A DNA stretch of 64,000 bases from assembly GCA_963775225.1 (NCBI GenBank), contig CAVZHW010000007.1, positions 67,756 to 131,755 on the forward strand, read 5' to 3'. Positions 4,811-17,821 of this stretch are shown piece after piece (position 1 is the stretch's first letter; each line of letters begins with the position of its first letter). The notes beneath the pieces are model-generated. The model did no database searches. It worked only from the letters and a program-made list of their open reading frames with translations, and was not told the DNA's origin. Source of the stretch: an uncultured Chloroflexia bacterium. Its GTDB lineage: Bacteria > Chloroflexota > Limnocylindria > Limnocylindrales > CSP1-4. The position numbers and the translations under genes were made by a program.

Positions 4811-6697
<1,887 letters not shown>

Positions 6698-10054: not shown

Positions 10055-10324
10055 GTGCCCCTGGCGCGGGAAACCAAGGAAGGGATCGTGGCTGAGCACG
10101 CCCGATCGGAAGCAGATACCGGCTCGCCGGAAGTGCAGATTGCATTGCTGACAGAGCGAATCAAGGGCCTGACGGAGCATCTGCGCAACTTTCCCAAGGA
10201 CAATCACTCGCGTCGCGGCCTGCTCAAGCTCGTCGGCCAGCGTCGCCGGCTCCTTGCGTACCTGATGCGCAGGGACAACGCTCGTTACCGCGCCCTGATC
10301 GGCGCGCTCGGACTGCGGCGCTAG
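10055..10324 (+). CDS. rpsO: 30S ribosomal protein S15
   Basis: 89 aa with the S15 signature ([14 protein letters not shown]...[15 protein letters not shown]). GTG start with a GGAGGA Shine-Dalgarno 6 nt upstream. Confidence 0.88.
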
Positions 10325-10340
10325 CAAACTCCTGAGCCCC

Positions 10341-10360
10341 GTCCTCCACCAATGGAGGAC
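10341..10360 (+). promoter_or_regulatory. Shine-Dalgarno-sequestering hairpin immediately 5' of pnp (candidate RNase III / autoregulatory stem-loop; also acts as the rpsO 3' hairpin)
   Basis: gtcctcca-ccaa-tggaggac is a perfect 8 bp stem. The 3' arm contains the GGAGGA Shine-Dalgarno located 3-8 nt before the pnp ATG at 10363. Confidence 0.5.
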
Positions 10361-10362
10361 TG

Positions 10363-12957
10363 ATGCCAGTCACAACACTGTCGACCGAGATCGCCGGTCG
10401 TACCCTGATCATCGAGACCGGTAAGCTCGCGCTGCTAGCCGGTGGTTCCGTCACCGTCCGCTACGGCGACACCATGCTACTCGGCACTGCCAATCGCTCG
10501 GAGCCGCGGCCGGGGCTCGATTTCTTTCCGCTGACGGTCGATTTCGAGGAGCGCATGTACGCCGCGGGCAAGATCCCGGGCGGCTTCATCAAGCGTGAGT
10601 CGCGCCCGTCAGAGGCGGCGATCCTGGCCGCGCGCCTGACCGACCGGCCCATCCGGCCGCTGTTCCCGAGTGGCTACAAGGACGACGTGCAGGTCGTGCT
10701 GACCGTGCTCTCGACCGACCAGGAGAACGATCCGGACATCCTCGGCACCATCGCTGCGTCGGCCGCACTGACGATCAGTGAGATCCCGTTCCGAGGCCCC
10801 GTCGCCGCCGTACGCGTGGGGCGCATCGACGGCGAGCTGGTGCTCAACCCGACCGTCACCCAGCTCGAGAGCTCGGACATCGACCTGGTCGTGTCCGGGA
10901 CGCGTGACGCAATCATGATGGTCGAGGCGGGCGCCAAGATCGTGCCCGAATCGGTGATGGCCGAGGCGATCATGTTCGGCCACCGGTCGCTCGCGCCGAT
11001 CATCGACCTCCAGGACGAGTTGCGCGAGAAGGTCGGTAAGCCCAAGCGCGTGCCGTACATCGAGCCGGGCACCGATTCGGTGCTCGCCTTCATCGATGCG
11101 CTGCACGACGACAAGCCGTTCGTGGTCTTCGACGTGGAGACGACCAGCCGCGACGTAAAGCAGGGCGCCATCGTCGAGATCGGCGCGGTCAAGGTTGTCC
11201 ACGGCAAGATCGAGGACCGCTGGTCGACGCTGGTCAATCCGGGTGAGGCGATCGTCGGGCGCCAGCTGCATGGCATCACCGACAAGGACGTGAAGAACGC
11301 GCCGTCACCGGCTCAGGCAGCCGGGCAGTTCAGCGACTGGGCAGGCGACGCGCTGCTGGTGGGCCACAACGTCGGCTTCGACATCGGCTTCCTCGAGGCG
11401 GCACTGGGCGACGGCCGGCGGATCGAGCAGGGCCGCTACCTGGACACGCTCGTGCTGGCGCGTGAGGCGTATCCAGACTCTGACCTGAAGCTCGCCGACC
11501 TGGCCCGCTTCTTCGAACTCGAGACCGAACCGAACCACCGTGCCCTGCCCGATGCCGAGGCGACAGCTCAACTGCTGCTGCGCTGGGCCGGTGACCTGCC
11601 GGCGCGCATCGATTCGTTCAAGAAGGAGGTCGCCGACGCGATCCGTGGGCTGCGCAGCAACGGCGGCACGCTCGAGGACGAGACCAGCGCGGTCGAGGCG
11701 GCACGCCGCCACGCACGTTTCTCGAAGGGCCTGGGCGGCCTGCTGCACAAGAAGGCGGTGCGCGAGCTGGTGCTCAACGAGGGCATCCGCATGGACGGCC
11801 GTGATGCGGAAACGATCCGGCCCATCTCGGTCGAGGTCGGGTTGCTGCCGCGCACGCACGGCTCGGCGCTGTTCACGCGCGGCCAGACGCAGGCGCTGAC
11901 GGTTGCCACGCTCGGTTCGTCATCCGACGTCCAGCGCATCGACACCATCAGCCCCGAGGAGTCGAAGCGCTACCTGCACCACTACAACTTTCCGCCGTAC
12001 TCGACCGGCGAGAACAAGCCGATGCGCGGGCCGTCACGGCGCGACATCGGGCACGGCGCGCTGGCCGAGCGAGCGCTTGTGCCGGTCCTGCCGGCGCATG
12101 AGGACTTCCCGTATGTCATCAGGCTGGTGTCGGAGGTCGTCTCGTCGAACGGCTCCACATCGATGGCCTCGACGTGTGGGTCGACACTCGCGCTGATGGA
12201 CGCCGGCGTGCCCATTTCGGCGCCGGTCGCCGGCGCGGCGATGGGCCTGGTCACCGGCGCTGACGGCAAGTTCGTGGTGCTGACCGACATCCTCGGCAAG
12301 GAGGATGCCTTCGGCGACATGGACTTCAAGGTGACCGGTACGGCCGAAGGCGTCACCGCGCTGCAGATGGACATCAAGATCCAGGGCATCAACGAAGACA
12401 TCATCCGCAGCGGGCTGGAGAAGGCACGCGCGGCGCGGCTGTTCATCCTGGGCAAGATGCTCGAGGTGATGCCCGAGGCGCGCACCGAGATGAGCGACTT
12501 CGCGCCGCGCATCATCACCATCAAGATCAACCCCGAGAAGATCCGCGACATCATCGGCAAAGGCGGTGCCACTATCCGCAAGATCCAGGAGGACACCGGC
12601 ACCAACATCAACGTCGAGGACGACGGCACGGTCGAGATTGCGGCGGTCAACGCCGACAACTCGCGCGCGGCCATCCAGATGATCGAGGGCCTCACCCGCG
12701 AGGTTGAGGTGGGCAGCCTGTACCTGGGCCGCGTGACGCGAATCATGGGTTTCGGCGCGTTTGTTGAGATCCTGCCCGGCAAGGAGGGTCTGGTGCGCAT
12801 CGGCGAGCTGGCCGACTACCACGTCCCCACGGTCGAGGACGTCGTGTCGGTCGGCGACGAGATCATGGTCGTGGTTACGGAGATCGACCGCCAGGGGCGC
12901 GTCAACCTGTCGCGTAAGGCGGCGATGCAGCGTCACCTCGCCAAGTCGCCCGCGTAA
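10363..12957 (+). CDS. pnp: polynucleotide phosphorylase (PNPase) carrying an inserted DnaQ-like DEDDh 3'-5' exonuclease domain (864 aa)
   Basis: RNase PH domain 1, then alpha-helical domain, RNase PH domain 2 (LPRTHGSALFTRGQTQAL), KH (IGKGGATIRKIQE) and S1 (GRVTRIMGFGAFVEI) are all present. An in-frame 160 aa insert at aa 250-412 carries Exo I FDVETT, Exo II HNVGFDIGFL and Exo III HRALPDAEAT. Confidence 0.9.
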   Translation: MPVTTLSTEIAGRTLIIETGKLALLAGGSVTVRYGDTMLLGTANRSEPRPGLDFFPLTVDFEERMYAAGKIPGGFIKRESRPSEAAILAARLTDRPIRPLFPSGYKDDVQVVLTVLSTDQENDPDILGTIAASAALTISEIPFRGPVAAVRVGRIDGELVLNPTVTQLESSDIDLVVSGTRDAIMMVEAGAKIVPESVMAEAIMFGHRSLAPIIDLQDELREKVGKPKRVPYIEPGTDSVLAFIDALHDDKPFVVFDVETTSRDVKQGAIVEIGAVKVVHGKIEDRWSTLVNPGEAIVGRQLHGITDKDVKNAPSPAQAAGQFSDWAGDALLVGHNVGFDIGFLEAALGDGRRIEQGRYLDTLVLAREAYPDSDLKLADLARFFELETEPNHRALPDAEATAQLLLRWAGDLPARIDSFKKEVADAIRGLRSNGGTLEDETSAVEAARRHARFSKGLGGLLHKKAVRELVLNEGIRMDGRDAETIRPISVEVGLLPRTHGSALFTRGQTQALTVATLGSSSDVQRIDTISPEESKRYLHHYNFPPYSTGENKPMRGPSRRDIGHGALAERALVPVLPAHEDFPYVIRLVSEVVSSNGSTSMASTCGSTLALMDAGVPISAPVAGAAMGLVTGADGKFVVLTDILGKEDAFGDMDFKVTGTAEGVTALQMDIKIQGINEDIIRSGLEKARAARLFILGKMLEVMPEARTEMSDFAPRIITIKINPEKIRDIIGKGGATIRKIQEDTGTNINVEDDGTVEIAAVNADNSRAAIQMIEGLTREVEVGSLYLGRVTRIMGFGAFVEILPGKEGLVRIGELADYHVPTVEDVVSVGDEIMVVVTEIDRQGRVNLSRKAAMQRHLAKSPA

Positions 12958-13100: not shown

Positions 13101-13841
13101 GTGGAGCCGTCGATCAGCGTGACGCCGGATGAACGCCGGCGGGCGCTCGATGAGGTCGCCACCGAGGTCGCCGCGTGCACACGTTGCCCGCTGCACGCAG
13201 GGCGGACGCGGGCCGTGCCCGGGGAGGGCCATCCCGACACGGAGGTCGTCTTCGTCGGCGAGGGGCCGGGCTACAACGAGGATCAGCAGGGCCGGCCGTT
13301 CGTCGGGGCTGCCGGTGGTCTGCTGAACGAGTTGCTCACCGCCATCGGCTGGCGGCGTGAGGAGGTATTCATCACCAACGTCGTAAAGTGCCGACCGCCG
13401 GCCAATCGTGACCCGGAGCCGGCGGAGATCGCCGCCTGTGCGCCGTACCTCCACCGCCAGCTGGAGGTCCTCGACCCGGCGCTGGTGGTCACCCTCGGCC
13501 GGCATTCGCTGCAGACGTTCATGCCCGGGGCACGTATCGGCGGCGCGCACGGCACCGAGCGGCCGGTCGACCCACAGACGGGCGCGTCCGGTGCCACCGC
13601 GTACGCGCTGTACCACCCGGCCGCGGCGCTCCGCCAGGGCGCCTTGAAGGAGACCATGTACGAGGACATGGCCGGTCTGCCCGACGCGCTGATCCGAGCC
13701 CGGCTGCGACGAGCCAACGCGAGCGACGCGCCGCCGGCAGCTGAAGAACCGGGCGCCGCCGAGGACGAATCCGAGGTGCAGATCGAGGAGCTGGAAATGG
13801 TCACTGTGGGCGATCCCGAGCCGCAACTGGAGCTCTTCTAG
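13101..13841 (+). CDS. udg: family 4 uracil-DNA glycosylase (4Fe-4S type) with an acidic C-terminal tail
   Basis: Motifs CTRCPLH, GEGPGYNED, VVKCRPP and HPAAALRQ. The C-terminal 50 aa are Ala/Glu-rich. Confidence 0.8.
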   Translation: MEPSISVTPDERRRALDEVATEVAACTRCPLHAGRTRAVPGEGHPDTEVVFVGEGPGYNEDQQGRPFVGAAGGLLNELLTAIGWRREEVFITNVVKCRPPANRDPEPAEIAACAPYLHRQLEVLDPALVVTLGRHSLQTFMPGARIGGAHGTERPVDPQTGASGATAYALYHPAAALRQGALKETMYEDMAGLPDALIRARLRRANASDAPPAAEEPGAAEDESEVQIEELEMVTVGDPEPQLELF

Positions 13842-15503
13842 ATGAACGTGGATGCCGGCACGCTGCGCATCCTGCCGCTCGGTGGCGTGGGCGAGATCGG
13901 CAAGAACATGACCCTGTTCGAGTGGAACGATGAGATCGTGGTCATCGACTGCGGGCTGATGTTTCCCGAGGAGGAGATGTTCGGCATCGACTTCGTGGTG
14001 CCCGACGTCACGTACCTGCGCGAGCGTGCGCACATGCTCAAAGCGTTCCTGATCACGCATGCGCACGAGGACCACATCGGCGGCCTGCCGTACGTCTTGC
14101 CGTACTTCCCCGGCGTGCCGGTCTACGCGTCGACCCTGGCGCAGGGCCTGTTGGGCATCAAGCTCAAGGAGCACAAGCTCACCAACAATCCCATGCTGCC
14201 GTTCGAGCCGGGCACGACCGTCGAGCTGGGCGCCTTCAGCGCCACCCCGTTCCGCATCGGCCACTCGATTCCCGACGCCATGGGTATCGCCCTGCGCACG
14301 CCACTCGGCATGGTCATCCACACCGGCGACTTCAAGTTCGACTACACGCCGGTCGATGGCAAGATGCCCGACCTGCACGCGCTGGCCGACTGGGGCCAGC
14401 AGGGCGTCCTGTGCCTGATGTCCGACTCGACGCGAGCCGAGAACCCGGGCTACACGCCGTCCGAGCGCACGGTCGGAGCCGCCTTCCACAACATCATGGA
14501 GGGTGTTAGTGGGCGGGTGATCGTGGCCACCTTCGCCAGCAACATCGCGCGTATCCAGCAGGTCTTCGACTCCGCGCGCGAGTTCGGCCGGCGCGTGGCG
14601 GTCATCGGCCGCTCGATGGAGCAGAACGTACGCATCGCCACCGAGCTGGGCTACCTGCGCTACCCGCCGGAGCAGCTCGTGACCAAGGATCGGCTGAAGG
14701 ATCTGCCCGACAACGAGGTGGTCATCGCCACGACCGGAGCACAGGGTGAGCCGATGGCCGGGCTGGCGCGGATGGCCAATCGCGACCACCGCTGGGTCGA
14801 GATCAAGCCGGGCGATACCGTCATCGTCAGCGCGAGCCCCATTCCGGGCAACGAGGAAGTGGTCGGGCGCACGATCGACAACCTGTTCAAGGTCGGCGCC
14901 AACGTCTTCTACCACGACATCCGGCGCGCGCACGTGTCGGGCCATGCGAGCCAGGAAGAGCTCAAGCTGATGCTCAGCCTGACCCGGCCGCAGCACTTCA
15001 TTCCGATCCACGGCGAATTCCGGATGCTTGTCCAGCATGGCCGGGTGGCCCAGGAACTGGGCGTCGCGGCGGAGAATATCTACATCATCGAGAACGGCCA
15101 ACCGATCGACTTCACGCCGCAGGGCGCGCACCGCGCGGTGCCGGTCGAGGCCGGTTACGTGTATGTCGACGGGCTGTCGGTCGGCGCGGTCGGCGACGTG
15201 GTGCTGCGCGACCGGCGCGCGCTGGCCAATGACGGCATGTTCCTGGTGGTGGTGACGGTCGACAAGCAGAGTGGCGCGCTGGTGGGCGAGCCGGAGATCG
15301 TCACGCTTGGCTTCGTTACCGGCCCTGACGACCCGGTCATCGCCGCCGCAGCTCGCCAGGTGACCGAAGCGATCCGCAGCCGGGGCGAACACACCAGCGA
15401 GGTGGGTGTGCTCAAGGCGCAGATCAAGGACAGGCTCTCGCAGTACCTGTTCCAGCAGACCAAGCGGCGGCCGATGGTCTTTCCCGTCGTGGTCGAGGTC
15501 TAG
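13842..15503 (+). CDS. rnj: ribonuclease J (metallo-beta-lactamase / beta-CASP RNase)
   Basis: HAHEDHIGG metal-binding motif, beta-CASP and C-terminal domains. 553 aa. Confidence 0.88.
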   Translation: MNVDAGTLRILPLGGVGEIGKNMTLFEWNDEIVVIDCGLMFPEEEMFGIDFVVPDVTYLRERAHMLKAFLITHAHEDHIGGLPYVLPYFPGVPVYASTLAQGLLGIKLKEHKLTNNPMLPFEPGTTVELGAFSATPFRIGHSIPDAMGIALRTPLGMVIHTGDFKFDYTPVDGKMPDLHALADWGQQGVLCLMSDSTRAENPGYTPSERTVGAAFHNIMEGVSGRVIVATFASNIARIQQVFDSAREFGRRVAVIGRSMEQNVRIATELGYLRYPPEQLVTKDRLKDLPDNEVVIATTGAQGEPMAGLARMANRDHRWVEIKPGDTVIVSASPIPGNEEVVGRTIDNLFKVGANVFYHDIRRAHVSGHASQEELKLMLSLTRPQHFIPIHGEFRMLVQHGRVAQELGVAAENIYIIENGQPIDFTPQGAHRAVPVEAGYVYVDGLSVGAVGDVVLRDRRALANDGMFLVVVTVDKQSGALVGEPEIVTLGFVTGPDDPVIAAAARQVTEAIRSRGEHTSEVGVLKAQIKDRLSQYLFQQTKRRPMVFPVVVEV

Positions 15504-15505
15504 CG

Positions 15506-17821
15506 TTGGCCCGCGCACGACGGGCGGGCGGGCCCGGCCGCTCACGCTCGCGCCAGGCACGCGCGACGACCCCGGCGCGACACTGGTTGGCCGCCTTCCA
15601 GGTGCCGCCGCACGTCGCCCGCTCGCTCACCGGCCTGGCACTCATCGTGGTCGGCGTCATCACGTTCATCGCGCTGCTCATCCCCCAGGCGGGGCTGCTC
15701 AACCGCTATCTCGATGACATCCTCCGGCCCGCGGTCGGACAGGGTGCCTGGCTGCTGGCGCTGCTGCTGGTCGTCGGTGGTGTGCTGGTCGAGCGTCCGT
15801 CGCCGCTGGCCAACGGCTCGCTGCTGGCGATCGTCGGCGGTGTGCTGATGTTCTTGGCCGGGCTCGGCCTGATCCATCTCGTCTGGGGCACCGGGGACGG
15901 CGCGCGCGCATTGAGTGCCGGGGGCGGGGCGCTCGGCGACGGGCTGTCGGCGACCTTCACCAGCCTGTTGTCGGCGCCGGGCGCATTCGTCCTGCTGGTC
16001 GGCCTCGTGCTCGCCGGGATGATCCTGTTCTTCAACGTCAGCCTGCGTACGCTGCTGGCGCCGGTGGGTGCCGGTGGCCGGGTGGTTGCCGGCGCCATGG
16101 CGCGGCCGGTTCGGCAGATAGCCGACGAGGCGGCTCGCCGGCAGGCCGCCACAGTCGCCGGGCCGCCCCGTCGCCAGGCACGCCGGGGGGCGCAGCCCGA
16201 GCCGGTCGACGCTCCGCTCGTGCAGCAGCGAACGACGATTCCGACGCCCGAGCAGACCGTCCTGCCGCTCAGCCAGACGATCTGGACTGCGCCGGTCGGC
16301 GCGACGCCACGTGTCCCGGTACAAGCGGAAGCCGCGGAATCGGAGTCCCGTCCGGCGCGTGTTTGGCAGCTGCCCGGCTATGACCTGCTCGACAAGGGTG
16401 AATCGGGCGCCCCCGGACAGCATCTCGACCACGCGCGCAACATCCGCATCATCGAGGAGAAGCTGTCGAGCTTCCAGATCCCGGCCGAGGTCATCGCCAC
16501 CAACACCGGGCCGGTCGTGACGCAATATGAGGTGCGCCCGGACGCACACATCAAGCTGTCGCGCATCGAGGCTCTGGCCGACGACCTGGCCATGGCGCTT
16601 GCGGCACGCTCGATTCGCATCGAAGCGCCGATTCCCGGGCGCGACGTTGTCGGCATCGAGATTCCCAATCACAGCAGCGAGATCGTCGGCTTCCGCCGAC
16701 TGCTCGAGGACTCGGCCATGGCCGACGCACAGAGCCGGCTGACCTTCGCCCTCGGCCGCGACGTGTCGGGTAAGGCATACGCCGTCGATCTCGCGCGCAT
16801 GCCCCATCTGCTCGTCGCCGGCGCCACCGGGTCGGGCAAGAGCGTGTGCGTCAATGCGCTGATCACAAGCCTCTTGATGCGTGCCAACCCCGACGAGCTG
16901 CGCCTCATCCTGATCGACCTCAAACGCGTCGAGCTCGCCGCCTACAAGGACCTGCCTCAGCTCGAGGTGCCGGTCATCGTCGAGGCGCACGAGGCCCGGG
17001 CGGTGTTGACCAATCTCGTTCACGTGATGGAGGAGCGCTATGAGCTCCTCGCGGCGGCAATGGAGCGCAACATTGCCGCCTACAACGTCAGCCCACGCCG
17101 TGGCGAGGCGCCGCCGATGCCGTACATCGTGGTCGTCATCGACGAGCTGGCCGACCTGATGCTGCGCGAAGGGCGCAAAGTCGAAGACCCGGTCGTCAAG
17201 CTGGCCCAGAAGGCACGTGCCGTCGGCATCCATCTGGTGCTCGCCACGCAGCGGCCGAGCGTCAACGTGGTCACCGGCCTGATCAAGGCCAATGTCCCAT
17301 CGCGCATCGCCTTCGCCATGGCGTCCAACGTCGACTCACGCACCGTCCTCGACGCGAACGGCGCAGAGGATCTCATCGGCCGTGGCGACATGCTCTACCA
17401 GCCGGCCGACCTGCCGCGGCCCGTGCGCCTGCAGGGCGTGTTCGTAAGCGACAACGAGGTTCACGGGGTCACCAAGTCATGGCGCGCTCAGGACGAGCCG
17501 CACTACAACCGCGACCTGATCAAGGGCGCCGAGTCGGACGATGGCCCAGACGGTGGCCAATACGCCTGGCTGGCCCAGGCGGCCGACGATGAACTGGCAC
17601 CGCGTGCGGCGGAGATCGTCCAGCAGACCGGCCGGGCGAGTACGTCGATGATGCAGACGAAGCTGAAGGTCGGCTTCAATCGCGCCACGCGGCTGATGGA
17701 TACGCTCGAACGGCATGGCATCATCGGTCCACTCGATCCGCGTAATCCGGGCGCGCCGCGGCAGGTCTACGGCCCGGAGAACTGGATCCGCGGCCCGTCG
17801 GAGGCGGACGCGCTCGACTGA
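15506..17821 (+). CDS. ftsK: DNA translocase FtsK/SpoIIIE
   Basis: N-terminal TM helices, a Pro/Ala-rich linker, a motor domain with Walker A (GATGSGKS) and Walker B, and a C-terminal gamma winged-helix. The start codon is uncertain. Confidence 0.85.
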   Translation: MARARRAGGPGRSRSRQARATTPARHWLAAFQVPPHVARSLTGLALIVVGVITFIALLIPQAGLLNRYLDDILRPAVGQGAWLLALLLVVGGVLVERPSPLANGSLLAIVGGVLMFLAGLGLIHLVWGTGDGARALSAGGGALGDGLSATFTSLLSAPGAFVLLVGLVLAGMILFFNVSLRTLLAPVGAGGRVVAGAMARPVRQIADEAARRQAATVAGPPRRQARRGAQPEPVDAPLVQQRTTIPTPEQTVLPLSQTIWTAPVGATPRVPVQAEAAESESRPARVWQLPGYDLLDKGESGAPGQHLDHARNIRIIEEKLSSFQIPAEVIATNTGPVVTQYEVRPDAHIKLSRIEALADDLAMALAARSIRIEAPIPGRDVVGIEIPNHSSEIVGFRRLLEDSAMADAQSRLTFALGRDVSGKAYAVDLARMPHLLVAGATGSGKSVCVNALITSLLMRANPDELRLILIDLKRVELAAYKDLPQLEVPVIVEAHEARAVLTNLVHVMEERYELLAAAMERNIAAYNVSPRRGEAPPMPYIVVVIDELADLMLREGRKVEDPVVKLAQKARAVGIHLVLATQRPSVNVVTGLIKANVPSRIAFAMASNVDSRTVLDANGAEDLIGRGDMLYQPADLPRPVRLQGVFVSDNEVHGVTKSWRAQDEPHYNRDLIKGAESDDGPDGGQYAWLAQAADDELAPRAAEIVQQTGRASTSMMQTKLKVGFNRATRLMDTLERHGIIGPLDPRNPGAPRQVYGPENWIRGPSEADALD

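Follow-up and report, generated by a model that had tools for sequence, protein, structure and literature searches.

The locus described here raises the question of whether a bacterial polynucleotide phosphorylase (PNPase) can harbor a complete second nuclease within its own helical domain, and what such a nuclease would do there. In the window (the whole 64-kb stretch of Limnocylindria DNA that was analysed), pnp occupies positions 10363..12957 of the + strand, stop codon included, and encodes a PNPase-DEDDh fusion of 864 aa which is identical to protein P0001 in the NCBI and ENA records. The product scores 951.1 bits with the NCBIfam PNPase equivalog model TIGR03591 (cut-off 525), the match falling into two stretches that flank an insert, and 945 with NF008805 (cut-off 471). 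Pfam finds RNase_PH twice, RNase_PH_C, KH_1 and S1, plus RNase_T (PF00929), and the order along the protein is two RNase PH-like cores with a helical domain between them, then KH and S1. The original prediction of a collinear canonical PNPase with all of its modules is thus confirmed by Pfam, TIGR03591 and alignment to solved PNPases.

The first RNase PH-like core, PH1 (aa 1-235; 10363..11067, + strand, as are all features below; PF01138 and PF03725), is alignable with residues 20-267 of 5yjj_A (phmmer against the PDB, query residues 6-253). It is followed by the first helix of the helical domain (aa 238-248; 11074..11106), which can be aligned to 5yjj_A through residue 267 and ends four residues upstream of the insert, AlphaFold giving a helix at 238-248 and then a strand at 253-260. 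The inserted DEDDh 3'-5' exonuclease domain of the epsilon/PolC/DinG type (aa 253-405; 11119..11577; PF00929 and TIGR00573) precedes the rest of the helical domain (aa 406-473; 11578..11781), where AlphaFold predicts three helices (394-432, 437-451 and 455-473; pLDDT 80-92). Apart from the interruption by the insert, the helical domain between the cores (helices 238-248 and 406-473) is complete. The second core, PH2, with the phosphorolytic active site (aa 474-705; 11782..12477; PF01138 at 485-617), the KH domain (aa 718-775; 12514..12687; PF00013, E=1.4e-12) and the S1 domain (aa 781-852; 12703..12918; PF00575, E=1.7e-16) complete the protein, query residues 461-855 aligning with residues 316-709 of 5yjj_A. 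As the fusion has 207 residues where 5yjj_A has 48, about 159 aa are extra; an additional in-frame segment had been proposed correctly, with a slightly larger size of about 163 aa and with boundaries (11107..11600, aa 249-413) that lie outside those of the Pfam-defined domain. Its placement between the first helix and the remainder of the helical domain is borne out by both the AlphaFold models and the 5yjj_A alignment.

The phosphorolytic active site of the host enzyme is intact in sequence. Residues R559/R560/H564, S595-S600 and D648/D652/D654/K656 of PH2 are invariant in a 70-sequence alignment covering both subgroups of the fusion, and we take them to be the equivalents of R398/R399/H403, S437-439 and D486/D492/K494 of the E. 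coli enzyme. The PNPase active-site motifs are likewise invariant in the 120 close homologues and in 24 of the 25 related loci. As a PNPase, the fusion would be expected to form a homotrimeric ring with a central channel and to have phosphorolytic activity.

The insert matches PF00929 at aa 254-405 over the entire profile (1-164 of 164; E=1.1e-28; 101-102 bits against a cut-off of 24), so the proposal of a complete DEDDh domain holds. It contains the conserved motifs Exo I (FVVFDVETT, aa 253-261; 11119..11145), with D257 and E259 forming D-x-E, Exo II (LLVGHNVGFDIGFL, aa 331-344; 11353..11394), with D340, and Exo III (NHRALPDAEATAQLL, aa 391-405; 11533..11577), where H392-x4-D397 is the DEDDh signature, with H and not Y. 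D257 and E259, which had been numbered D256 and E258 and were thus off by one, are invariant in 120/120 close homologues and in 26/26 sequences when the window is aligned with the 25 GTDB loci (the locus alignment). D340 and H335 are unchanged in 120/120 homologues and in every member of the locus alignment but one (25/26), L020, where the frame is broken. H392 and D397 are invariant in both the homologue and the locus alignments. The pentad D257/E259/D340/H392/D397 is intact in 24/25 GTDB species loci and throughout the 70-sequence alignment of the two subgroups; the earlier statement that the three motifs and their catalytic residues are intact is accordingly extended to all intact homologues examined. 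On these grounds the insert is predicted to be a metal-dependent hydrolytic 3'-5' exonuclease.

The domain had been called DnaQ/RNase T-like, of which the first half stands, whereas the RNase T label is misleading, as the insert belongs to the epsilon/PolC/DinG branch of DEDDh enzymes and lies well apart from RNase T and Orn. The 'dnaq' domain model TIGR00573 gives 87.0 bits for the whole protein and 91.4 bits for the insert alone (cut-off 71.5). The best 25 of the 29 NCBIfam matches to the insert are all of DEDD-exonuclease, PolC, DinG, epsilon or ExoX type, and these 25 include no model for RNase T or Orn, the remaining 4 being weaker than E=7e-11. NF005906 (PRK07883 group) is the top family (E=6.5e-45), other matches being NF001688 (PolC; E=1e-34) and NF005981 (DinG; E=8.5e-34), and one of the best PDB sequence matches is the PolC exonuclease domain 2p1j of T. 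maritima (E=1.9e-20). The AlphaFold sub-model of the domain (pLDDT 89.8, pTM 0.86) adopts the DnaQ/RNase H-like fold, and Foldseek retrieves DinG, PolC and epsilon with rmsd of 2.2-2.6 A: DinG of S. aureus (9ii8/8zef) at the top, PolC 9qrn/9qpc at 2.2 A, and E. coli epsilon at 2.3-2.6 A with target-normalised TM of 0.78-0.81. Structures of RNase T, Orn and REXO2 rank beneath these (E about 1e-6, 16-25% identity). Characterised members of the epsilon/PolC/DinG/DEDD-GIY-YIG group act mainly on DNA.

The full-length monomer model has only moderate confidence (pLDDT 69) and superposes on PNPase cores with a target-normalised TM of up to 0.84. In both this model and the sub-model the Exo III helix of the insert runs unbroken into the helical domain (predicted helix 394-432), and the C-terminal junction is free of indels in the locus alignment. 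With a 4-residue linker at one end and a continuous helix at the other, the DEDDh domain is predicted to be rigidly mounted, not tethered. The helical domain of PNPase lies on the ring face opposite S1/KH, where it helps to form a pore through which the active site can be reached (PMC2723993). By analogy, a trimer of the fusion would bear three DEDDh domains on the face opposite the S1/KH entry, beside the side pore.

Homologues of the fusion are numerous. The survey of the insert among homologues that had been suggested finds the PNPase-DEDDh architecture in more than 240 protein clusters at 90% identity (NCBI, JGI, ENA and Logan) and in 25 GTDB species genomes, some on contigs of 2.2-2.7 Mb; the best 120 matches listed in each homologue search are all fusions, and the 25 GTDB loci were located with patterns inside the insert, by which insert-free pnp genes could not appear. 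The sequences form two subgroups with an identical insertion site and inserts 45-51% identical to each other, and this common site despite such divergence points to one ancient event. The insert is under purifying selection and evolves as slowly as the PH cores: median dN/dS over 13 pairs is 0.17 for the insert, 0.14 for PH1, 0.135 for PH2 and 0.37-0.45 for the helical linkers, and amino-acid conservation is 0.81 for the insert against 0.87 for the PH cores and 0.46-0.49 for the linkers, the helical remainder (aa 406-473) being weakly conserved (0.49 identity, dN/dS 0.37). Many of the sequences for Limnocylindria, an uncultured class of soil and freshwater, come from soil metagenomes and MAGs, so the fusion would serve a widespread group as its main 3' exonuclease and is not the curiosity of one genome.

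Several other proteins were considered and rejected. P0141, P0152, P0133 and P0126 had appeared to be divergent fusions (45% identity), and on inspection contain garbled, frameshifted sequence, hence are not truly divergent. P0199, P0245, P0249, P0215, P0240, P0231, P0189, P0266, P0205, P0184 and P0135, chosen as possible further fusions because their DEDDh domain lies near residues 220-410 or their match extends into the post-insert helices, are not PNPases; these representatives are RecJ, PolC, DinG, BRCT, GIY-YIG or unknown fusions.

The gene directly upstream of pnp is rpsO, encoding ribosomal protein S15 (10055..10324; PF00312, E=1.2e-34), which starts with GTG preceded by GGAGG and lies upstream of the fused pnp in 25/25 related loci. 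Both belong to the block proS..nusA-infB-rbfA-nrnA-truB-ribF-rpsO-pnp, a gene order that is common among bacteria. The proximity of nrnA, a DHH/DHHA1 NrnA-like gene to which the original prediction had drawn attention, is real, and as part of an ordinary conserved block it carries no particular information on the insert. A tblastn search of the 64-kb window found neither another pnp nor another DEDDh gene, and the fused pnp is best explained as a single-copy-looking housekeeping gene of a Limnocylindria (Chloroflexota) bacterium.

Judging from the sequences, it is very probable that the fusion is genuine and conserved and that its DEDDh domain is catalytically active. In the explanation that we favor, a domain of the epsilon/PolC/DinG type would have entered the loop that connects helices one and two of the PNPase helical domain a single time, in an ancestor common to the lineages sampled. 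Phosphorolysis would take place in the ring interior, and a second 3'-5' exonuclease site outside it, dependent on metal but not on phosphate, would act by hydrolysis, trimming single-stranded 3' ends or finishing the short oligonucleotides left by PNPase. The fusion would then be an in-cis form of the pairing of PNPase with a DEDDh scavenger (Orn or REXO2) that is known in trans. Tetranucleotides are the shortest products of SUV3-PNPase and are degraded by REXO2, and an excess of nanoRNA impairs the degradosome (PMC7261184). Taken whole, from insertion to oligonucleotide trimming, this explanation has about an even chance of being right; its functional part, the finishing of RNA or oligonucleotides by the DEDDh site, is put forward tentatively, with the balance tilting somewhat against it. 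The roles first suggested for the fusion, in clearing structured 3' ends or in degrading nanoRNA, are likewise tentative. The insert is not of Orn/RNase T type, and its nearest relatives are DNA-directed both by sequence (PRK07883 DEDD exonuclease, PolC and DinG) and by structure (S. aureus DinG with ssDNA, PolC and epsilon). Linear ssRNA is cleaved by B. subtilis DinG with Mn2+ only (PMC12525004), and, with an NrnA-like gene already nearby, a nanoRNase may not be missing.

That kinship leads to a different reading, in which the DEDDh domain acts on DNA or RNA-DNA hybrids and not on free RNA, in 3'-end processing during DNA repair or in R-loop removal, and which would extend the known moonlighting of PNPase on ssDNA ends. 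The nearest relatives of the insert (DinG, PolC proofreading, Pol III epsilon and the actinobacterial DEDD-GIY-YIG-UVR proteins) point this way, as do the preference of B. subtilis DinG for ssDNA and for the RNA strand of hybrids (PMC12525004) and the repair role of B. subtilis PNPase as an ssDNA 3' exonuclease (PMC2709576). However, S1, KH and the phosphorolytic RNA site are all preserved in the host protein, whose gene follows rpsO among genes for translation and RNA processing. Many DEDDh domains are not strict about the sugar, so the substrate cannot be read from ancestry. A gene of the UDG family lies downstream of pnp in both subgroups, which is weak evidence because other genes intervene in several loci. 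We regard this reading as unlikely, with perhaps one chance in four.

Coupling of the two sites in the manner of the exosome is improbable. In the eukaryotic exosome a PH ring works with hydrolytic nucleases (Rrp44 and the DEDD-family Rrp6). In the fusion a 3' end might travel through the S1/KH pore and channel, or by way of the helical-domain pore, and so reach the DEDDh site on the other side of the ring, or the DEDDh site might edit tails made by PNPase. The choice among phosphorolysis, synthesis and hydrolysis would then be made on one bound substrate, and the fusion would be a bacterial analogue, in one polypeptide, of the exosome's pairing of PH ring and hydrolytic nuclease. The predicted rigid, indel-free mounting on the helical domain is consistent with such a hand-off, as is a second way into the active site, a pore that the helical domain borders on the side of the ring away from S1/KH, but this pore was deemed an improbable RNA conduit by the authors who described it (PMC2723993). 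Moreover, covalent linkage by itself would raise local concentration, with no need for a hand-off.

A catalytically silent insert, serving as a structural, regulatory or protein/nucleic-acid docking module that gates, for example, the NDP/phosphate pore, is very improbable. Inactive DEDD-fold domains do occur in other proteins, and the helical domain is dynamic and influences PNPase activity (PMC2723993); however, none of the five catalytic residues varies between the two subgroups, in spite of the divergence of their inserts noted above, and a silent module would not need them.

The reading frame is unbroken through the insert and contains no Ns. GC3 is 0.86 in the insert and 0.88-0.91 elsewhere in the gene, the codon-usage cosine between insert and host gene is 0.91, and neither these measures nor the composition profile reveals a compositional break across the fused pnp. 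No repeats were found flanking the junctions, and no intein/splicing, homing-endonuclease or transposase domain was found in the insert, for which Pfam gives RNase_T-type families only. A chimeric assembly join, an intein or a recent mobile sequence can practically be dismissed, as had been foreseen: the sole hint of it is the frameshifts in P0126, P0133, P0141, P0152 and locus L020, whereas the same architecture recurs throughout the clusters and species genomes surveyed, and systematic mis-joins are implausible given independent assemblers and sequencing technologies.

The architecture seems new to the literature as far as found, its sequences already standing in public databases under automatic names. 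No paper describing it turned up, in keeping with the original prediction, in a search where subscription journals were thinly covered and absence is not proof, and a UniProt-wide survey of S1 domains (full text) describes no PNPase-DEDDh fusion. Many fusions are automatically named 'DNA polymerase III epsilon subunit family exonuclease', which masks pnp in those genomes. To our knowledge, few RNA-decay enzymes keep so constant an architecture as PNPase does, in bacteria and organelles alike. What its helical domain and side pore do is poorly understood, and the fusion, with a second intact nuclease center retained there over a long span of evolution, provides a natural experiment on that face of the ring; it also allows the coupling of phosphorolytic and hydrolytic 3' decay in one particle to be tested, as in the exosome, and bears on whether the DNA-end functions of PNPase were reinforced in some lineages.

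The fusion resembles canonical PNPases (E. coli, C. crescentus, S. antibioticus GPSI and Staphylococcus; 3gcm, 4am3, 1e3h and 5yjj) in domain order, active-site motifs and rpsO neighbor, but no solved PNPase has the DEDDh domain of about 159 extra residues inside the helical domain. The PolC proofreading domain (T. maritima 2p1j and Firmicutes PolC) ranks with the best matches to the insert in both sequence and structure and is likewise spliced inside another catalytic domain, the PHP domain of L026 being split around DEDDh; its host, however, is a templated DNA polymerase that proofreads DNA 3' ends, whereas the host here is a template-independent RNA phosphorylase. DinG (S. aureus 9ii8/8zef and B. 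subtilis) also fuses a DEDDh module to a nucleic-acid motor or enzyme, with the DEDD at the N terminus, not inserted, and a helicase as partner. The actinobacterial DEDD-GIY-YIG-UVR proteins (PRK07883 group; Gaiellales, Rubrobacter and Mycobacterium loci) share 43-47% domain identity, but have an N-terminal DEDD followed by a UvrC-like nuclease and no PNPase context; we know of no characterised function for them. RecJ with an inserted DEDDh (P0207/P0391 and P0199, from Elusimicrobia MAGs), recovered among the matches to the insert, has a full PF00929 domain between DHH and DHHA1, in a host that is a 5'-3' ssDNA exonuclease from another phylum and with 38-44% identity to the PNPase insert, and shows that the DEDDh module was inserted into nucleases more than once.

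A parallel in function is PNPase with a separate Orn (bacteria) or REXO2 (mitochondria), where members of the two enzyme superfamilies joined in the fusion serve a single pathway and phosphorolytic 3' decay is followed by hydrolytic removal of short products (PMC7261184). These are separate proteins from another DEDDh branch (17-24% identity to the insert, Foldseek E about 1e-6). Both Orn and REXO2 act as homodimers. The eukaryotic RNA exosome resembles the fusion, as a resemblance only, in its PH ring, S1/KH cap and hydrolytic 3' exonucleases, one of the DEDD superfamily. In the exosome, however, the ring has lost catalysis, hydrolysis is left to nucleases that are subunits of their own, and Rrp6 is a DEDDy enzyme on the cap side, whereas the ring of the fusion retains its phosphorolytic residues and its nuclease is covalently inserted, probably on the opposite face.

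The pnp ORF (10363..12957, + strand) encodes a product of 864 aa, in which Pfam identifies both RNase PH cores, RNase_PH_C, KH and S1. Between the PH cores, at residues 254–405, PF00929 (RNase_T, the family of the DEDDh exonucleases) is matched over its whole length (E=1.1e-28; 101 bits, gathering score 24). TIGR03591, the equivalog model for PNPase, scores 951 bits (cut-off 525), its match being split into two stretches on either side of the insert. Among solved structures, residues 20–267 of 5yjj_A match residues 6–253 and residues 316–709 match residues 461–855, leaving 207 residues where 5yjj_A has 48 (approximately 159 extra). The three exonuclease motifs are located at residues 253–261, 331–344 and 391–405, with D257, E259, D340, H392 and D397 as the catalytic residues of the DEDDh domain. 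The original prediction of a DEDDh domain carrying all three motifs inside an 864 aa PNPase with every module present is thus borne out by both the HMM search and the alignment to solved PNPases, while its numbering of the first two acidic residues (D256 and E258) was one too low. Every sequence and fold test run places the protein in the PNPase family and the insert in the DEDDh superfamily.

In NCBIfam, the insert is matched best by the PRK07883 'DEDD exonuclease domain-containing protein' group (E=6.5e-45), PolC (1e-34), DinG (8.5e-34) and the epsilon family, and the insert exceeds the cut-off of the 'dnaq' domain model TIGR00573 (91 against 71.5 bits). In genomes, two groups of non-PNPase proteins come nearest to it (40–47% identity), namely actinobacterial DEDD-GIY-YIG-UVR proteins and Firmicutes PolC, the latter in its proofreading domain. 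A confident AlphaFold sub-model covering residues 232–478 (pLDDT 89.8, pTM 0.86) is closest to the solved structures of Staphylococcus aureus DinG with ssDNA, PolC, the PolC exonuclease of Thermotoga maritima and Escherichia coli epsilon (rmsd 2.2–2.6 Å over about 169 columns), with RNase T, Orn and REXO2 lower in the ranking (E of about 1e-6, 16–25% identity). Membership of the Orn or RNase T families is therefore rejected. The insert belongs to the epsilon/PolC/DinG branch, so that of the proposed 'DnaQ/RNase T-like' assignment the DnaQ/epsilon part holds, while 'RNase T-like' is true at the superfamily level only.

An assembly join or other artefact is ruled out, in agreement with the original reading. 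GC content and codon usage (cosine 0.91) are continuous over both insert junctions, GC3 is 0.86 in the insert against 0.88–0.91 elsewhere, and the window sequence contains neither Ns nor repeats at either junction. NCBI and ENA records contain the same 864 aa protein, encoded on a contig of 202 kb, and PF00929 occurs together with the PNPase domains in all of the 120 best homologues (80–100% identity, 854–872 aa), whose named sources are Candidatus Limnocylindria, Limnocylindrales or Chloroflexi soil metagenome bins.

Both AlphaFold models place the first DEDDh strand (residues 253–260) four residues after the helical domain's first helix (238–248). The Exo III helix bearing H392 and D397 continues unbroken as helix 394–432 into the helical domain, succeeded by helices 437–451 and 455–473, in line with the original placement of the insert between the first helix and its continuation. 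Across all subgroups, the C-terminal junction has no indels and the N-terminal junction at most one residue. Owing to this continuous helix, the four-residue linker and the nearly indel-free junctions, the DEDDh domain is predicted to be rigidly mounted on the helical domain. The full-length model is of moderate quality (pLDDT 69), with parts of PH2 and S1 poorly modelled because the alignment is shallow; PNPase cores superpose on it with a target-normalised TM of up to 0.84. In PNPase, the helical domain and S1/KH occupy opposite faces of the torus, and the pore of the helical domain has been argued to be used more likely by NDP and phosphate than by RNA (Nurmohamed et al., PMC2723993). By analogy, a trimer of the fusion protein would display three DEDDh domains on the face opposite S1/KH, beside the pores.

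An exhaustive search of 1.84 billion cluster representatives, with the insert and both junctions as the query, returned about 40 representatives below 1e-30, essentially all fragments or members of this PNPase–DEDDh family, and generic DEDDh proteins thereafter. Other proteins whose DEDDh domain is similarly placed are RecJ, PolC, DinG, BRCT or GIY-YIG fusions, and none is a PNPase. Four cluster representatives of the fusion family (P0126, P0133, P0141 and P0152) show long stretches rich in R, P and G, as frameshifted gene calls typically do, and their low identity to the window (45–52%) thus overstates the divergence of the family. A genome scan with patterns inside the insert, which reaches insert-bearing pnp only, found 25 GTDB species-representative loci matching over both junctions, and their informative taxon names are Chloroflexota or Limnocylindria. 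Three loci are filed elsewhere, namely L009 (DATLVO010000031.1, 2.2 kb; 'Verrucomicrobiia'), L017 (DASRJS010000073.1, 16 kb; 'Polarisedimenticolia') and L004 ('Anaerolineaceae'). Their fusions are of a kind typical of Limnocylindria and 57–59% identical to the window across the insert region. Mis-binning or mislabelling of these contigs is more probable than an occurrence of the architecture in other phyla. The deepest subgroup (L018, L019 and L021–L025; at least 120 further clusters, all with the same Pfam architecture) shares 45–51% identity with the window in the insert and 67–69% in PH1. Since the insertion site is exactly the same in subgroups with such divergent inserts, one ancient insertion event is the simplest reading. 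The fusion is real, ancient and, as far as sampled, class-wide.

The DEDDh pentad is invariant in 120 of 120 close homologues, in a 70-sequence alignment of both subgroups and in 24 of the 25 GTDB loci. The sole exception, L020 (CAVZTA010000016.1, locus about 6250–6410), has a frame break inside the insert and an ORF stopping at 364 aa, with PH1, the remaining insert and PH2 still matched by tblastn, and is either a pseudogene or an assembly indel. Equally invariant in the 120 homologues and the 70-sequence alignment are R559/R560/H564, S595–S600 and D648/D652/D654/K656, which we take to be the counterparts of the RNA-, phosphate- and metal-binding residues of the E. coli enzyme. Median pairwise dN/dS (13 pairs) is 0.17 in the insert, 0.14 in PH1, 0.135 in PH2 and 0.12 in KH-S1, against 0.37–0.45 in the helical segments flanking the insert. 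Constraint on the insert is thus as strong as on the catalytic cores and speaks for a functional active site. At position 336 in the Exo II motif (nt 11368–11370), directly behind the conserved H335, the window, 119 of 120 close homologues and subgroup B have N. Of the 26 sequences in the locus alignment, 12 have S (H-S-V-G-F-D; all within L002–L017), and the homologue P0082 has T. The substitution is lineage-specific and lies close to the catalytic D340.

The fused pnp looks like an ordinary housekeeping pnp in its usual operon. It is preceded by rpsO (S15) in the window and in all 25 loci, and nrnA (DHH/DHHA1), truB and ribF lie upstream. In both subgroups, the downstream side has a UDG-family gene, RNase J and ftsK, with intervening genes at some loci. 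In the window, the UDG-superfamily (uracil-DNA glycosylase-like) gene (13101–13841, +) lies some 140 nt beyond pnp and directly adjoins RNase J (13842–15503, +), which is followed by ftsK (15506–17821, +). The nrnA gene is present in the cluster as noted originally, yet it is part of a widespread synteny block and thus gives no specific evidence on the insert. No second pnp or DEDDh gene was found by tblastn within the 64-kb window. The rpsO–pnp spacer (10325–10362) contains the inverted repeat GTCCTCC-ACCAAT-GGAGGAC (10341–10360), forming a hairpin of -14.4 kcal/mol (44 nt folded) whose 3' arm is the Shine-Dalgarno sequence of pnp. The comparison covered subgroup A, the start codons of subgroup B being uncertain, and the sequestering CCTCC...GGAGG pairing recurs 5' of pnp at many subgroup-A loci (clearest in L001, L003, L004, L007–L010, L012, L014, L016 and L017). 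The hairpin may exert translational control of pnp.

The protein is shown to be a conserved, selected fusion of two intact catalytic centres. It would add a metal-dependent, hydrolytic, phosphate-independent 3'-5' exonuclease activity to phosphorolysis, and the DEDDh site is most readily pictured as trimming single-stranded 3' ends or finishing short oligonucleotides left by PNPase. Cooperation of this kind is known in trans, as tetranucleotides are the shortest products of SUV3-PNPase and are degraded by REXO2, and surplus nanoRNA hampers PNPase-dependent decay (PMC7261184). In the main competing reading, the DEDDh domain would be directed at DNA or hybrids, as the characterised relatives of the insert act on DNA 3' ends; the DinG of Bacillus subtilis attacks ssDNA and, in hybrids, the RNA strand, and free ssRNA only with Mn2+ (PMC12525004), and B. 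subtilis PNPase has a documented role at ssDNA ends in repair (PMC2709576). Direct coupling of the two sites, by an exosome-like hand-off or by editing of PNPase-made tails, is a possibility compatible with the predicted rigid mounting and otherwise unsupported. A silent structural role is unlikely, because the pentad is invariant.

As originally supposed, the architecture is apparently undescribed: PDB sequence and fold searches found no solved PNPase with a DEDDh domain inside the helical domain, and no description was found in the searchable literature, whose coverage is incomplete. In public databases the sequences appear with automatically assigned names, 'polyribonucleotide nucleotidyltransferase' in NCBI. 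In JGI, most of the listed full-length fused PNPases bear the label 'DNA polymerase III epsilon subunit family exonuclease', a name evidently drawn from nothing but the insert. By this error pnp would seem missing and dnaQ duplicated in these genomes. The graft merits attention as PNPase architecture is, to our knowledge, otherwise so constant, and as the face of the enzyme that bears the graft is the one least understood.

Both component families are well known, and nuclease–nuclease fusions are not rare. The exonuclease of PolC is likewise spliced into another domain, with the PHP domain of the comparison locus L026 split around it. The insert search also matched RecJ proteins with a complete PF00929 between DHH and DHHA1, at residues 217–370 in P0207/P0391 (737 aa; Elusimicrobia MAGs, e.g. 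OGS33164.1) and 221–373 in P0199 (765 aa). These two DEDDh-bearing RecJ proteins fall into separate 50%-identity clusters and represent a second, independent case of the module spliced inside another nuclease. The DEDDh module tolerates insertion and has repeatedly been inserted into nucleic-acid enzymes. Further unusual tandem architectures, made from the same epsilon-like module, are P0135 (1045 aa; three RNase_T domains, GIY-YIG and UVR), P0149 (618 aa; two DEDDh (RNase_T) domains and BRCT) and P0167 (1164 aa; two DEDDh (RNase_T) domains and a DinG-type helicase). PNPase with a separate REXO2 brings together the same two superfamilies acting in trans, whereas the protein of the window holds both in one polypeptide.
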